Source: Chloroflexota bacterium (GTDB lineage: Bacteria; Chloroflexota; Dehalococcoidia; SM23-28-2; HRBIN24). From it: DNA of 64,000 bases. The translations under genes and the position numbers were made by a program. This document shows positions 115 to 51,645 of this stretch, in pieces (the stretch's first letter is position 1; every line of letters begins with the position of its first letter). A model generated the notes under the pieces. That model was not told where the DNA came from. It ran no database searches and was given only the letters and a program-made list of their open reading frames with translations. The stretch spans positions 2,162 through 66,161 of the forward strand of contig JAUQPQ010000001.1 in assembly GCA_030550295.1 (NCBI GenBank), written 5' to 3'.

Positions 115-639
115 TTACTCCTCCTTGAGTTCAGCGGCCAGGGCCTTTAATGGCGCCCAACGGCTGTCCACCTCCCACGAACAAAGGCAAGAGCCCTCGT
201 TAAGGTCCTGGCCGCACTTCTGGCATAAGCCCCGGCAATCGGGCCGGCATAGGGGGTTTATGGGCTGGGCCAAGATCGCGTACTGGCGCAGCGCCTCCCT
301 TAGGTCCAACACGAAATCGGGCCCAATGGTGAAGATGTCCCCATCCTCGGGAGGAGGCAATGGGACCCCAGTAAAGACGTCTACCAGGGGCAGGAACTCC
401 TCCTCGAACTGGATCTCCAGGTTATAGACTGCCTCTTGCAGGCATCGGGCACATTGGCCGTGGCCTATAGCTGTAGCCTCTAGCCTGGCTAGCAAGCCTC
501 TCCTGGTGCGCATTAGCTCCAGGCTGCCCTCCACCTGCCCCAGCAAGAGATCTTCCAGCTGTAGGGATTCTTCCCTAATGCGGTAGTGCAATGACGTCCC
601 TACAGGGCGCTTTAGGTCGTGGGCAACGTGATAACGCAT
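115..639 (-). CDS. yceD: YceD/DUF177 family protein (large-subunit rRNA accumulation protein)
   Basis: The 174-aa ORF has a C-terminal cysteine cluster CRPDCRGLCQKCGQDLNEGSC typical of DUF177. It sits upstream of rpmF. Confidence 0.75.
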   Translation of the reverse strand: MRYHVAHDLKRPVGTSLHYRIREESLQLEDLLLGQVEGSLELMRTRRGLLARLEATAIGHGQCARCLQEAVYNLEIQFEEEFLPLVDVFTGVPLPPPEDGDIFTIGPDFVLDLREALRQYAILAQPINPLCRPDCRGLCQKCGQDLNEGSCLCSWEVDSRWAPLKALAAELKEE

Positions 640-732
640 GGAGCTGCTACCGCCTCAGTGGTCCCTTCCTTGCCGATGGCCCGCTATTCAGTCTATAATC
701 GCCACGCAACCTTGTCCAGCGCTGTAGCAGCC

Positions 733-1434
733 ATGCACCCTATGGCCTATCTCTACGCCCTCCAAGAGACCGACCTGGCCATTGACTCCCTCCGCCAACA
801 GATTGCGCAGATAGACGCCCAGCTAGGGGAGACAGAGGAGCTGATCCAGCTAAAAACCCAGGTAGAGGCGACGCGGAAACGGATCCAACAGCTGCACAGC
901 CAACAGCGAGACCTGGAGCTGGAGACCCTAAGCCTCCAGGACAAGATTAAGGGGGTAGAAAATAAGCTGTACGGCGGCGAGATCACTAACCCCAAAGAGC
1001 TGCAGGGCCTGCTAGAAGACCTGCAGGCCCTCAAAAAACAGTTATCACTCTTGGAGGATCGATTGTTGACGCTCATGATAGAAGGAGATGAGCAGGAAAA
1101 GGCCCTGAGGAAACAGGAAGAGCGCCTCTCCCAAGTACTGACAGCCTGGCAGGAAGAGCAAGAGAAGCTCAAGGCTGAGAGGGGCCAGCTGGAGGAGCAA
1201 CTGAGACTCTTGGAAGCCCAAAGGGACGCCCAAGTAGCCCAGGTGGCTCCCCCCTTTCTCTCCCTGTACGAAGGGTTAAGGGCGAGGCGGCAGGGACGGG
1301 CGGTCGCCAAGGTGGAGAGAGGCCTGTGCGGAGGGTGCCACATAGCCCTCCCCGTCTCCCTCGTCCAGAGGGCCCGCACTGGCAGCTCGCCCGTGCAGTG
1401 CAGCAGCTGTGAACGCATCCTCTATGTGCCATAA
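733..1434 (+). CDS. COG1579-type zinc-ribbon protein with long coiled-coil
   Basis: The protein is rich in Q/E/L heptads and ends in CGGCHIALP...CSSCERILY, a C4 zinc ribbon. The start was chosen at the internal ATG (MHPMAYLY). The longer upstream ORF extension overlaps yceD. Confidence 0.6.
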   Translation: MHPMAYLYALQETDLAIDSLRQQIAQIDAQLGETEELIQLKTQVEATRKRIQQLHSQQRDLELETLSLQDKIKGVENKLYGGEITNPKELQGLLEDLQALKKQLSLLEDRLLTLMIEGDEQEKALRKQEERLSQVLTAWQEEQEKLKAERGQLEEQLRLLEAQRDAQVAQVAPPFLSLYEGLRARRQGRAVAKVERGLCGGCHIALPVSLVQRARTGSSPVQCSSCERILYVP

Positions 1435-1435
1435 C

Positions 1436-2653
1436 ATGGCCATAGGTTACTTCCCTGGCGGTACCGATTGGGACCACCAGCGGTTCTTAGCCTTTTGCTC
1501 TCAACGGGGTTTCGTCCCAAAGGGGTGGTTCACCGGCGAGCACAACCTGGAAGAAGCGATAACCCGTCTTGAGGAGGGGGACACGCTAGTGGTGCCCTCT
1601 CCACATGCCATAGGCTCGAGGCCGGTGGCGGCGGCTTGGAATTACCTCAGGGCTGTGGCCAAAGGGGCCCAGGTAATAGAAATGGAGAGAGGCGAAGACG
1701 TAGGCTTATCTATAGTGGCCTTCGCCTCAACATCGTCTCGGGGGGCCAAGGTAAGGCAGGCCATGGCCCAGAGGGCCCTGCATAGCCGGGTCTTGGGGCG
1801 TTCGCCCTTTGGCTATCAGGTGGGGCCGGAGAATCGCCTACAAGTCCACCCTCAGGAGGGGGAGGTGGTGCGCCTCATCTTTAGGCTCTATGTACAAGAG
1901 AGGATGGGACTAAGGCGGTTGGCCCAACACCTTAACTCCCAGGGCATAGCGACTAGGTCGGGTAGGCCGTGGACGGTGGCCGCTGTGCGCGAGTTGTTAC
2001 GCAACCGAGTGTATGTGGGCACCTACCACCGTTTTGGGGTGAGGGTACCAGCTAGCCATCCTCCCCTTGTATCCTACGATGACTACAACCGGGCCCAGGA
2101 GCTACTGACCCGCAGAGGAGGCAGAGGTGGACGCCGCCAGTCTCAGGAGGTGGCCTTCCTCCTCTCTGGTCTAGCCTACTGTGCCTACTGCCAGGGCCGT
2201 ATGGTAGGCGTGAGGCGCTACCAGCGTTGGCAACGACGCGATGGCCTACCCCAAGAAAACGTCTACCTTTACTACCAGTGTGGGTCGCGTCTCAACCGCA
2301 GCCTTTGCGATTACCACACGTGGCGCGCCCATGAGCTGGAGGGGGAAGTAGTAAGGCGCCTCCAGGCCGGCGAGGCGGAGACAGGTAGCGGCGCCCAGGA
2401 GAGGAGAACTCATCTCCAACGTTTGGAGCGTCTGCTTAGGGAGGTCAGCCAGGGCCTTATCTCATATCAGGAGTGGCGGCAAAAAGGTTTATCCCTGATA
2501 GAGCCATGGCTTCTCATGGACGAAGGCATCGCCCGTAAGATGCTAGCGCGCTGGGACGAGCTGACGTTTTCCCAGAAGCGTCAGGCCCTCCTCCGGCTGG
2601 TGGAGCGGGTAGACGTGTGGGACGACCAGATCAAGGTGACGGTTAGGGGATGA
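1436..2653 (+). CDS. large serine recombinase-like protein (resolvase fold + recombinase domain + zinc ribbon), catalytic Ser apparently replaced
   Basis: The N-terminus has the resolvase-like pattern (...GDTLVVPSPHAIGSR..GAQVIEMERGEDV...RSPFGYQV). A recombinase-domain motif follows (VHPQEGEVVRLIFRLYV...RNRVYVGTYHRF), then a Cys-rich zinc ribbon (CAYCQGRM...YYQCGSRLNRSLC). The expected Y-x-R-x-S-T-D-E-Q nucleophile motif reads YFPGGTDWDHQ instead. The start is set at the ATG after the upstream stop. Confidence 0.6.
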   Translation: MAIGYFPGGTDWDHQRFLAFCSQRGFVPKGWFTGEHNLEEAITRLEEGDTLVVPSPHAIGSRPVAAAWNYLRAVAKGAQVIEMERGEDVGLSIVAFASTSSRGAKVRQAMAQRALHSRVLGRSPFGYQVGPENRLQVHPQEGEVVRLIFRLYVQERMGLRRLAQHLNSQGIATRSGRPWTVAAVRELLRNRVYVGTYHRFGVRVPASHPPLVSYDDYNRAQELLTRRGGRGGRRQSQEVAFLLSGLAYCAYCQGRMVGVRRYQRWQRRDGLPQENVYLYYQCGSRLNRSLCDYHTWRAHELEGEVVRRLQAGEAETGSGAQERRTHLQRLERLLREVSQGLISYQEWRQKGLSLIEPWLLMDEGIARKMLARWDELTFSQKRQALLRLVERVDVWDDQIKVTVRG

Positions 2654-3063
2654 CAGACAAAGTGGTGGCCTATGCCGATGGAGCATCCAGGGGGAACCCT
2701 GGCCCGGCTGCTATAGGCGCCGTCCTCCTAGACGAGGAGGGCCGGGAATTGTATTCTATCTCCCGTCCTATAGGGGTGGCCTCTAATAATCAGGCTGAAT
2801 ATAAGGCGGCTATAGCGGCCCTGGAGGCTGCCCTGGCTTTGGGAGCGCGGAGGTTAGAGCTGCGTCTGGACTCAGAGCTAGTGGTGAGGCAGCTAGAGCA
2901 CCGCTACCAGGTACGTGATCCTGCCTTACGCGCCCTCTTTGCTCGCATGCTGGAGCTGAGGCGCCACTTCCAGGAGTTCCAGATCGTCCATATCCCTCGT
3001 GAGGAGAATAAGCGGGCCGATGCCTTGGCCAACCAGGCCCTGGACTCGGCACCCCTACCCTAA
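2650..3063 (+). CDS. rnhA: ribonuclease HI
   Basis: The 137-aa protein reads ADGASRGNPGPAAIGAVL...NNQAEYKAAIAAL...ENKRADALAN. This is the RNase H fold with the DEDD catalytic residues. Its ATGA start overlaps the upstream gene. Confidence 0.85.
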   Translation: MTDKVVAYADGASRGNPGPAAIGAVLLDEEGRELYSISRPIGVASNNQAEYKAAIAALEAALALGARRLELRLDSELVVRQLEHRYQVRDPALRALFARMLELRRHFQEFQIVHIPREENKRADALANQALDSAPLP

Positions 3064-3874: not shown

Positions 3875-5284
3875 TCACGCTGACACGGGGCCGGCCCCTA
3901 GCCCTGGCTCCGTCATGCGGGTGGGATCCAGGAGGCGATCCAGCTCCTCCTCGGTGAGGGAGGTGCGTTCTCTGGCCACCTCCCTTATGGTGCGGCCTGT
4001 CCTGGCCGCCTCCTTGGCTATCTCGGCGGCAGCATCGTAGCCTATGGCCGGGGCCAGGGCGGTAGCCAGCATAAGCCCCCTTTCCACCATCTCCGGCCCA
4101 CGGGAGGTGGCCGTTAGCCCTTCTATGCATCGCTTGCGGAAGTTGTGACAGGCGTTGGTGAGGATGTGTATCGCCTGGAGGAGGTTATGGGCGGCCATGG
4201 GCATCATCAGGTTCAGCTCGAAGTAGCCCCCCTCCCCTCCCTGGGCTACGGCGGCATCGTTTCCCAAGACTTGGGCGCATGCCTGGATGACCGATTCGGG
4301 GATAACGGGGTTGACTTTGCCGGGCATTATAGAGCTTCCCGGCTGCACCTCGGGCAGTTGGAGCTCCCCCAGACCGGCCCGCGGCCCTGAGCCCATCCAT
4401 CGGATATCGTTGGCGATCTTCATGAGGGAGATGGCCACAGTGCGCAGGCATCCGCTCGCCATGACCACGTTGTCCAGGGTGGCCTGGAGGGCGAAATGGT
4501 TGTCCGTCTCCCTGACAGTTAGCCCTAACTCTTGGGAAAGGAGTTTGCAGACGCGCCTGGCGAACTCAGGATGGGTGTTCACCCCTGTCCCTACTGCCGT
4601 GCCTCCCAGAGGGAGCTCAGAGAGCTCCTCCACGGCGTAGCGAAGGCGCTTTATTCCTCGCTCTATTTGGCCTGCGTAGCCTAAGAACTCTTGCCCCAGC
4701 CTGATAGGCGTGGCGTCCATTAGGTGGGTGCGTCCCGTCTTGATGATCTCCCAAAACTCTTTCCCTTTGGCCTTGAGCGCCTCATGAAGGCTATCGAGGG
4801 CGGGGATGAGCCCCTTATGGATCGCCTTCAAGGCTGCTAAATGGATGGCGGTGGGGATGACGTCGTTAGAGGACTGGCCCAAGTTGACGTGGTCGTTAGG
4901 ATGGACGATGCGCGATCCCCTGCCGTGGCCCAAGATCTCGGCGGCCCGGTTGGCGATGACCTCGTTGGCGTTCATGTTGGTAGATGTGCCTGACCCCGTC
5001 TGAAAGACGTCTACCACGAACTGGTCGTCCAGCTTACCCTCGTACACTTCCCAGGCTGCCTGTTGGATGGCCTCGGCCAGCTTATGATCTAACAGGCCTA
5101 GTTCGTCGTTCACCTTGGCGGCAGCCCATTTGATTAGCCCCAGCATGTGTATAAGCTCAGGGGGCATGCGTACCCCAGATACAGGGAAGTTCAAGACAGC
5201 CCTTTGCGTAGAAGCGCCATAGTAGGCATGGGCGGGCACCTCCATGGGGCCCATGGAGTCACGCTCTATCCTGGTCTCAGTCAT
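3875..5284 (-). CDS. aspA: aspartate ammonia-lyase / class II fumarase family lyase
   Basis: The 469-aa protein carries the family signature GSSIMPGKVNPVIPE, which is closer to the aspartase version than to FumC's ...KVNPTQCE. It also has HPNDHVNLGQSSND and the N-terminal MEVPAHAYYGASTQRA. Confidence 0.7.
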   Translation of the reverse strand: MTETRIERDSMGPMEVPAHAYYGASTQRAVLNFPVSGVRMPPELIHMLGLIKWAAAKVNDELGLLDHKLAEAIQQAAWEVYEGKLDDQFVVDVFQTGSGTSTNMNANEVIANRAAEILGHGRGSRIVHPNDHVNLGQSSNDVIPTAIHLAALKAIHKGLIPALDSLHEALKAKGKEFWEIIKTGRTHLMDATPIRLGQEFLGYAGQIERGIKRLRYAVEELSELPLGGTAVGTGVNTHPEFARRVCKLLSQELGLTVRETDNHFALQATLDNVVMASGCLRTVAISLMKIANDIRWMGSGPRAGLGELQLPEVQPGSSIMPGKVNPVIPESVIQACAQVLGNDAAVAQGGEGGYFELNLMMPMAAHNLLQAIHILTNACHNFRKRCIEGLTATSRGPEMVERGLMLATALAPAIGYDAAAEIAKEAARTGRTIREVARERTSLTEEELDRLLDPTRMTEPGLGAGPVSA

Positions 5285-25857: not shown

Positions 25858-25932
25858 GGGCGGTTAGCTCAGTGGGAGAGCGCTTGCTTCACACGCAAGA
25901 GGTCGCAGGTTCGAGTCCTGCACCGCCCACCA
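25858..25932 (+). tRNA. tRNA-Val (anticodon CAC)
   Basis: A manual cloverleaf was built. The acceptor stem is GGGCGGT/ACCGCCC, the D-arm GCTC..GAGC, the anticodon loop TTCACAC, the T-loop GGTTCGAGTCC, and the 3' CCA is encoded. Confidence 0.8.
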
Positions 25933-25944
25933 CAGGTTAAAAAG

Positions 25945-26032
25945 GCCCAGGTGGCGGAACTGGCAGACGCGCTGCGTTCAGGGCGCAGTGCCCCCTGCGG
26001 GCGTGCGGGTTCGAATCCCGCCCTGGGCACCA
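25945..26032 (+). tRNA. tRNA-Leu (anticodon CAG), long variable arm
   Basis: The acceptor stem is GCCCAGG/CCTGGGC and the anticodon loop is UUCAGGG. A 16-nt variable arm and the T-loop GGTTCGAATCC are present, and CCA is encoded. Confidence 0.8.
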
Positions 26033-26102
26033 TAGGTAGATAAGAAGGTTGGAGGCGCAGCTCTCTGCCGGTTTCCTTAACTTATAGGGGCCGGCCCCAG
26101 GC

Positions 26103-26180
26103 GCGCTCGTAGCTCAGCCCGGACAGAGCGCAGCCCTGCGGAGGCTGAGGTCGTGGGTTCGAATCCCACCGAGCGCGCCA
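26103..26180 (+). tRNA. tRNA-Arg (anticodon reads GCG)
   Basis: The acceptor stem is GCGCTCG/CGAGCGC, the anticodon stem CAGCC/GGCTG, the loop CTGCGGA, and the T-loop GGTTCGAATCC. CCA is encoded. The anticodon is unusual compared with the typical ACG. Confidence 0.65.
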
Positions 26181-51570: not shown

Positions 51571-51645
51571 TGGAGCGGGCGGCGGGGATCGAACCCGCGA
51601 CAACCGGCTTGGAAGGCCGGTGCTCTGCCACTGAGCTACGCCCGC
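51571..51645 (-). tRNA. tRNA-Gly (anticodon UCC)
   Basis: The reverse complement folds as GCGGGCG-TA-GCTCAGTGGCAGAGC-A-CCGGC-CTTCCAA-GCCGG-TTGTC-GCGGGTTCGATCCCCGC-CGCCCGC-T-CCA. Confidence 0.8.

Follow-up and report, generated by a model that had tools for sequence, protein, structure and literature searches.

We analyzed a 64,000-nucleotide stretch of a Chloroflexota genome assigned to the class Dehalococcoidia (GenBank assembly GCA_030550295.1, contig JAUQPQ010000001.1, positions 2,162 to 66,161 of the forward strand; hereafter, the window), focusing on a gene near its start that encodes a 405-residue homolog of large serine recombinases (LSRs). This recombinase-like gene lies between the genes for a COG1579/DUF164 coiled-coil zinc-ribbon protein (ZnR) and a short RNase HI (rnhA), with a yceD gene diverging upstream (Table 1). 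An initial annotation, made from the sequence alone, had reported this arrangement and regarded the middle gene product as a domesticated relative of integrases; the open reading frames (ORFs) match its description, and our results indicate that the protein belongs to a family that is predicted to be catalytically dead and is inherited as the fixed partner of the ZnR gene. The 3 genes are tightly packed. Direct reading of the sequence places a single base between the ZnR stop codon (TAA, 1432-1434) and the recombinase-like ATG at position 1436, and the start codon of rnhA overlaps the recombinase-like stop as ATGA (2650-2653), an overlap that the annotation had also pointed out. An alternative GTG start at position 1409 would extend the recombinase-like protein from 405 to 414 residues. 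The gene is present in a single copy within the window.

Table 1. Features of the operon region and of the recombinase-like protein, with positions in the window. The ratio of nonsynonymous to synonymous substitution rates (dN/dS) was calculated by the Nei-Gojobori method for 158 pairs at 70-97% amino acid (aa) identity.
Feature	Position	Strand	dN/dS	Mean pairwise identity	Basis and remarks
yceD (DUF177) gene	115..639	-			divergent neighbor; Pfam YceD, 5.3e-23
Putative bidirectional promoter region	670..718	.			consensus scan and conservation
COG1579/DUF164 zinc-ribbon gene (ZnR), 233 aa	733..1434	+			first gene of the operon; coiled-coil hairpin and C4 zinc ribbon (CGGC...CSSC, i.e., CxxC...CxxC, in the translation); CT398_CC (PF24481) 4.7e-13, 49.8 bits (cut-off 27); Zn_ribbon_9 (PF02591) 1.7e-8, 34.8 bits (cut-off 29.1)
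Recombinase-like gene, predicted catalytically dead LSR homolog	1436..2653	+			405 aa plus stop; PF07508, PF13408, AlphaFold2, Foldseek
N-terminal resolvase-fold domain, aa 1-100	1436..1735	+	0.19		lacks the nucleophile Ser and the Arg triad; invariant Cys21
Equivalent of the alpha-E (dimerization/oligomerization) helix, aa 101-118	1736..1789	+	0.07	0.69	aligns to the gamma-delta E-helix; basic
Recombinase domain (RD), aa 120-230	1793..2125	+	0.05	0.76	most conserved part; Recombinase (PF07508) 3.8e-20, 72.5 bits (cut-off 21.1)
Zinc-ribbon domain (ZD), aa 240-300	2153..2335	+	0.07	0.72	Zn_ribbon_recom (PF13408) 3.9e-12, 46.8 bits (cut-off 25.3); ligands C249, C252, C282, and C291 invariant in 79 sequences
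Helical region aligned to the LSR coiled-coil motif, and C-terminal beta-hairpin, aa 301-405	2336..2650	+	0.20 (helical region)		alignment, AlphaFold2 model
Short RNase HI gene (rnhA), 137 aa	2650..3063	+			RVT_3 (PF13456) 4.7e-25, 88.3 bits; RNase_H (PF00075) 2.4e-13, 50.9 bits (cut-off 25.8); DEDD predicted intact

The RD and the Cys-rich ZD named by the initial annotation are both recognized by Pfam, whereas the Resolvase family PF00239 did not match the window protein at E <= 0.1. The resolvase-like N-terminal domain that had also been proposed is therefore assigned here from a profile of the family and from the predicted fold. The profile, built from 79 members, aligns to residues 1-142 of gamma-delta resolvase (E = 1.6e-4) and to the A118 and SPbeta integrases with E values of about 1e-21. 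An AlphaFold2 (AF2) model based on 109 homologs has a mean predicted local distance difference test (pLDDT) score of 85, with values above 90 in the N-domain, where a beta-alpha-beta pattern is followed by a long helix; the equivalent of the alpha-E helix is modeled at residues 102-115. Foldseek comparisons of this model retrieved the full-length SPbeta and Bxb1 integrases as well as the C-terminal domains of an A118-type integrase (4kis), with E values of 1e-13 to 1e-17, and aligned the N-domain with the catalytic domains of Sin and gamma-delta resolvase at a root-mean-square deviation of about 3 A; the Sin regulatory complex 2R0Q was also among the matches. The RD is strongly basic (isoelectric point 11.3, net charge +10), and the ZD and the E-helix each carry a net charge of +5. 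The C-terminal helical region aligns to the C-terminal part of the A118 integrase chain, and the model predicts helices at residues 320-338 and 344-358 and strands at 389-403. In the window protein, about 60 of the residues that most family members have in this helical region are missing. The clade of 405-423-residue proteins to which it belongs carries 2 deletions of ~20 residues each relative to the 465-residue majority (alignment columns about 354-375 and 428-451), which look like a matched shortening of both coiled-coil arms. The best NCBIfam matches of the protein are to XisF and Ccr proteins (1e-9 to 1e-16), far under the respective cut-offs. In the source databases, family members are labeled “site-specific DNA recombinase,” “DNA invertase Pin-like,” or “recombinase family protein,” and about half of them carry a precomputed weak match to PF00239 despite the missing catalytic residues.

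To locate the active site, we mapped the catalytic residues of gamma-delta resolvase onto the family using hmmalign and compared the window's clade (n = 7) with the clade of 465-residue proteins (n = 72). The N-terminus of the window protein (MAIGYFPGGTDW) reads YFPGGTDW where serine recombinases have Y-x-R-V-S-T, and the alignment confirms the loss of Ser and Arg deduced from this motif: R8 is replaced by P, S10 by G, R68 by A, R71 by S, and D67 by H. There is no Ser within the first 21 residues that could serve as a nucleophile at a shifted position, and Thr10 aligns to resolvase Thr11, in a site lacking all 3 arginines. The degenerate motif is thus real, but it is not peculiar to the window gene. 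The position of R8 is occupied by P in all 7 members of the window's clade and by R in 63 of the 72 proteins of the 465-residue clade; that of S10 holds G or A in 7/7 and, in the larger clade, T (25), A (10), S (10), R (6), G (5), K (4), P (4), and others, with V, M, L, I, and Q also found at this position. The tolerance of Ala, Arg, Gly, Lys, and Pro at this position argues that it is not under selection for catalysis. At the position of R68, the window's clade has A or V, and the 465-residue clade retains R in a single protein of 72, the remainder carrying S, T, G, A, C, or V; the R71 and D67 positions vary in both groups. By this alignment, Ser10, Arg68, and Arg71 are not conserved anywhere in the family, and the window's clade is its most degenerate branch. 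The 465-residue clade has Y-F-R-E in place of Y-x-R-V-S, with a near-invariant Glu at position 9. The family has a distinctive residue of its own: Cys21, located in the first helix of the N-domain within the motif F-L-x-F-C (positions 1496-1498 of the window), is invariant in 109 of 109 members. This position is a gap in gamma-delta resolvase, and the Cys is present in the nearest relatives with a canonical Y-x-R-V-S-T motif.

In a pattern scan covering each GTDB species with one genome, 413 genome stretches were found to encode a relative, and 80 of these loci were retrieved and examined. All titled records among the 413 are from Chloroflexota, mostly Dehalococcoidia, with one Thermoflexus metagenome-assembled genome. 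Protein searches with the window protein and with a Thermoflexus-type member gave a similar picture, every named match being from Chloroflexi or Dehalococcoidia; the 120 matches listed in a search with the ZnR protein are all 233-255 residues long and at least 45% identical, and the named ones are all from Dehalococcoidia. In 80 of 80 loci, the recombinase-like gene directly follows the ZnR gene, and in about 65 it is directly followed by the RNase HI gene, so that the 3-gene order of the window is kept in about 65/80 loci and the ZnR pair in all of them. The yceD gene is divergently oriented upstream in most loci and is followed by the L32 gene (rpmF) in locus L081. The ZnR stop and the recombinase-like start are separated by -1 to +4 nt in 67 of the 75 loci in which the gene could be delimited, and the recombinase-like stop and the rnhA start by -4 to +8 nt in most; the recombinase-like ORF is intact in all 75, and no frameshifts or stop codons were seen in relatives. 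Two very divergent dead members, only 30-34% identical to the window protein, have the ZnR gene 3-6 nt upstream; the divergent members with an adjoining ZnR gene include those at L083, L086, and L087.

The invariant unit is, hence, the ZnR gene together with the recombinase-like gene, with RNase HI as a frequent third gene. The initial annotation had described an LSR homolog wedged between a conserved gene pair; the gene does sit between both, but its constant partner is ZnR, and RNase HI is not always adjacent. The ATGA overlap, the 1-nt gap, and the minimal gaps in relatives bear out the proposal of a translationally packed operon. No + strand terminator-like site was found within 733-3063, and we predict that the ZnR gene, the recombinase-like gene, and usually the RNase H gene are co-transcribed and translationally coupled.

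Neither the locus nor its evolution resembles that of a live mobile element, as had been suspected from the sequence. The GC content is flat over the region (0.58-0.62), and the repeats flanking the recombinase-like gene are short imperfect chance matches, none of them resembling attachment (att) sites; the gene is separated from its neighbors by 1 nt and -4 nt, so that att repeats would have no space around it. The wider neighborhood consists of housekeeping genes (rpmF, fab genes, nusB, and tat), no mobile-element genes are found nearby, and the position is fixed in the 80 loci. Pairwise distances between recombinase-like proteins correlate with those of ZnR, RNase HI, and YceD (r = 0.80-0.82, Mantel p = 0.001) as tightly as the latter correlate among themselves (r = 0.80-0.84), and the recombinase-like protein has a lower mean divergence (0.42) than ZnR (0.50) or YceD (0.54). 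Together with the low dN/dS values of all its domains (Table 1), these results show that the gene is vertically inherited and under purifying selection. The conserved address, the co-divergence, and the low dN/dS exclude both a live element and a decaying remnant. Furthermore, the RD and ZD of integrases diverge along with their att sites, whereas these domains are 72-76% identical across the family, which points to a conserved ligand, be it a structure or a sequence.

To delineate the family, its profile was searched against 1.84 billion representatives, yielding 1198 clusters at E <= 1e-30. This search extended as far as relatives of the active type, which the search with the Thermoflexus-type member had not. 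Among the 146 of the best 150 matches that were inspected, all full-length proteins scoring above about 222 bits have a degenerate N-terminal motif, and the canonical Y-x-R-V-S-T is encountered from 222 bits downward (P0467, P0476, P0478, P0483, P0489, and P0493). Several of the canonical relatives still share F-x-x-x-C in the helix with the dead family, and the closest of them sit on contigs of about 1.6 kb. Because the canonical motif appears only at or below 222 bits and the F-x-x-x-C feature is common to both, the dead family looks like a single offshoot of one particular group of active LSRs.

The third gene of the operon provides a link to RNA/DNA hybrids. The window RNase HI matches the NCBIfam RNase HI models with E values of 1e-38 to 1e-39, under their full-length cut-offs, and its DEDD active site is predicted to be intact, with D10, E50, D74, and D124 all present and kept in 56-58 of 58 orthologs. 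In 5 species (L052:6406-7344, L063, L066, L069, and L078), the RNase HI slot is occupied by a gene for a 312-residue protein of the RNase HII family (Pfam), which passes the NCBIfam cut-off for ribonuclease HIII (190.5 versus 161.2 bits) and starts within about 30 nt of the recombinase-like stop. These 5 loci form one subclade nested among RNase HI-linked clades; RNase HIII is a functional analogue of RNase HI, and its arrival in the very position of the latter favors a functional reason for the adjacency over a historical one. A different arrangement is found at L073, where the short RNase HI is missing: the gene convergent to the recombinase-like gene (L073:6411-7349, - strand) encodes 312 residues, of which about 170 form an uncharacterized N-terminal extension ahead of an RNase HI domain (PF00075, 1e-32) at the C-terminus. 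In the clade of ~490-residue proteins (L083:1281-2663, - strand; L083:6667-7542, + strand), the pair is located near a radA/sms-like gene, followed by a gene for a luciferase-like monooxygenase and not by an RNase H gene; a luciferase-like neighbor is also present at L047 and L076.

The intergenic region between yceD and the operon contains a putative bidirectional promoter. The sole upstream promoter-like site found on the + strand by consensus scanning, TTGCCG-18-TATAAT (670-699), is directed toward the operon and is overlapped by a - strand site directed toward yceD, TGGACA-17-TAGACT (718-690), the -10 region being common to both. A core of ~30 nt (AAGTCTATAATCCCGTCGCAGGCATTGTCCA) around TATAAT...TTGTCCA is near-identical in dozens of species (L001-L046, about 4200-4290), the flanking proteins of which are merely 40-50% identical; a second subclade has 2 separate TATAAT boxes instead. 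The conserved core may represent promoters alone or an operator as well. We considered it as evidence of operator binding and rejected it as such, given that the 2 overlapping promoter-like sites account for the conservation. Downstream of rnhA, the window continues with an enoyl-CoA hydratase gene and fumC. An Rfam scan of the whole window revealed 4 tRNAs, 3 of them clustered at 25858-26177 (+ strand) and one at 51574-51645 (- strand), with no rRNA, RNase P RNA, or riboswitch at threshold and nothing near the operon.

Based on the lost catalytic residues, the purifying selection, and the vertical inheritance over 80 loci, we assign a probability of roughly 0.9 to the view that the gene is a domesticated, non-catalytic host gene, as already advanced by the initial annotation, and is maintained by selection. 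For its function, we infer nucleic acid binding, a complex with the COG1579 protein, and a link to hybrid processing; such a ZnR-partnered, RNase H-linked role has, in our estimate, a probability of about 0.5. The protein would dimerize via its retained E-helix, the dimerization element of serine recombinases, and its N-domain, and the basic, strongly conserved RD and ZD would bind nucleic acid. It could join the COG1579 protein, perhaps via contacts between coiled coils, in a non-catalytic recognition or scaffold module that acts in an RNase H pathway, in the removal or processing of RNA/DNA hybrids, and may confer substrate or site recognition on the minimal RNase HI, which at 137 residues is too short for an extra substrate-binding domain.

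Several observations weigh against this role. The 465-residue clade retains R8 (63/72), Q19 (71/72), D36 (64/72), and R45 (51/72), so that some ligand may still be bound by the former active-site pocket, which may have been put to a new use in that clade. The exchange of RNase HI for RNase HIII is a single evolutionary event and hence carries moderate weight. RNase HIII comes with a substrate-binding domain at its N-terminus, and this makes it less likely that substrate binding is supplied by the recombinase-like protein. The ZnR-recombinase pair is followed by unrelated genes, with no adjacent RNase H, at L047, L067, L076, L083, and L087, so that the tie to RNase H is frequent and not obligatory. 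Finally, the characterized COG1579 proteins HP0958 and CT398 have been tied to sigma-54 and to secretion or flagellar export, not to RNA/DNA hybrids (PMC3372290, PMC5947703). A more specific version, in which the dead integrase and the COG1579 protein constitute a targeting module sending RNase H (HI or HIII) to a conserved DNA sequence or structure of Chloroflexota, appears unlikely on the present evidence. If it were true, hybrids would be removed, or primers processed, at defined sites and not generically, and the COG1579 family would gain its first biochemical handle.

It is conceivable, if doubtful, that the protein is instead a transcription factor, the RD and ZD of which bind an operator, for example, in the yceD/operon promoter, its position in the operon serving autoregulation only. 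The ~30-nt promoter core is far better conserved than the flanking proteins, both the RD and the ZD combine a basic character with high conservation, and the Tn3 and gamma-delta resolvases repress their own promoters by binding to res. However, the 2 overlapping promoters fully explain the core, which is laid out differently in the second subclade and is not an inverted repeat of the type bound by LSR dimers. Moreover, simple autoregulation gives no reason to expect a gap of 1-4 nt to the COG1579 gene in every lineage, nor a linkage to ZnR that persists where RNase H and yceD lie elsewhere, as it does.

The constancy of the COG1579 partner, as opposed to RNase H, could also mean that the protein acts on the COG1579 protein as a scaffold or chaperone and has no role in nucleic acid transactions, the adjacency of RNase H being accidental. 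LSR coiled coils are protein-protein interaction modules, and HP0958 and CT398 have been described as protein-interaction hubs (PMC3372290, PMC5947703). We nevertheless consider this quite improbable, because the DNA-binding domains are both strongly basic and the most constrained part of the protein (dN/dS of 0.05-0.07 versus 0.20 in the putative coiled-coil region), and the in-place swap of RNase HI for RNase HIII is hard to put down to accident.

Retention of recombinase activity through a shifted or alternative nucleophile, such as Thr10 or the Thr or Ser at the Ser10 position, is highly improbable. T or S is found there in 35 of the 72 proteins of the 465-residue clade, R8 is kept in 63 of the 72, and the window protein has a Thr one residue past this position. 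Yet the same position also accepts A, R, G, K, P, V, M, L, I, and Q; R68 is missing in 71/72, R71 and D67 vary, and R8 is P throughout the window's clade; the canonical motif occurs only in more distant relatives (<=222 bits against the family profile); and the gene occupies a stable position, with neither att-like repeats nor a mobile context. That the gene is a pseudogene, a decaying integrase remnant that landed between 2 host genes, as the lost catalytic residues and the shortened putative coiled coil of the window's clade might suggest, has a negligible chance of being correct, given the intact ORF in all 75 delimited loci, dN/dS of 0.05-0.2, conservation exceeding that of the housekeeping neighbors with which it co-diverges, a confident AF2 model, and relatives in 413 genome stretches.

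We found no description of a catalytically dead, conserved serine recombinase family in the full-text literature searched, the coverage of which was incomplete, so that an earlier description is possible. The serine recombinases covered in a review on the recruitment of mobile elements are all active, namely, Hin-type invertases and integration/excision enzymes (PMC8987985). The flanking genes have a richer record. The Mycobacterium tuberculosis operon Rv2231c-Rv2230c (NIF3)-Rv2229c (COG1579)-Rv2228c (RNase HI/CobC) contains the COG1579-RNase HI pair without a recombinase (PMC7466739); COG1579 is the most frequent COG in NIF3 (COG0327) operons, with RNase HI (COG0328) in the top 20 (PMC8469502); and rnhA is drawn among the neighbors of flgZ homologs (PMC3372290). 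The COG1579 protein of M. tuberculosis has been reported to be essential (PMC5947703). The initial annotation stated that COG1579 and rnhA form a conserved neighborhood in several phyla; the pair on record in M. tuberculosis (PMC7466739) documents this for one other phylum, and within Chloroflexota, it is the ZnR-recombinase pair that forms the constant unit. What emerges is a predicted class-wide catalytically dead LSR whose gene has a fixed place in an operon, next to that of a COG1579 protein and, in most cases, that of an RNase H.

If this interpretation is true, the family, large and ancient, would be a clear example of a former integrase serving the cell as a non-catalytic factor, with its DNA-recognition parts kept under selection, in contrast to the host-recruited serine recombinases covered by the review, which still cut and join DNA (PMC8987985). 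The family also connects a protein of DNA-binding architecture with RNase H and with the widespread COG1579/DUF164 proteins, for which there is no agreed function, and this linkage provides a testable hypothesis for all 3 together. On the practical side, annotation pipelines and screens mining genomes for integrases should exclude members of the family as non-functional integrases.

The zinc-ribbon partner is of the same coiled-coil plus zinc-ribbon type as the M. tuberculosis protein, Helicobacter pylori HP0958, and Chlamydia trachomatis CT398, whereas the cited COG1579 operons lack a recombinase-like gene and the examined Chloroflexota loci lack a NIF3 gene beside the pair. The recombinase-like protein shares its domain order and folds, including the closing beta-hairpin, with the LSRs of solved structure, i.e., A118-type (4KIS, 6DNW), SPbeta (9DXD, 9Y66), and Bxb1 (9IU2) integrases. 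It differs from them in lacking the Ser nucleophile, Arg68/Arg71, att sites, and a mobile context, in being vertically inherited in a fixed operon with RD and ZD far more conserved than expected of integrases, and, in the window's clade, in its shortened putative coiled coil. Without the nucleophile, the Arg triad, and the mobile or att context, we class the family as an LSR-derived non-catalytic variant rather than as an integrase. As a serine recombinase working for its host, it is comparable to XisF, SpoIVCA, CcrA/B/C, and Hin, but those proteins retain the catalytic Ser and invert or excise DNA, which the family is predicted to be unable to do. A precedent for the use of the fold without chemistry is offered by those Tn3, gamma-delta, and Sin subunits that occupy accessory res sites, where they serve in DNA binding, architecture, and regulation, and by resolvase acting as a repressor of tnpA/tnpR. 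In those systems, however, catalytically competent proteins play a second role, on a mobile element, and bind through a small helix-turn-helix domain, whereas the Chloroflexota family would rely on the RD and ZD of its LSR ancestors.

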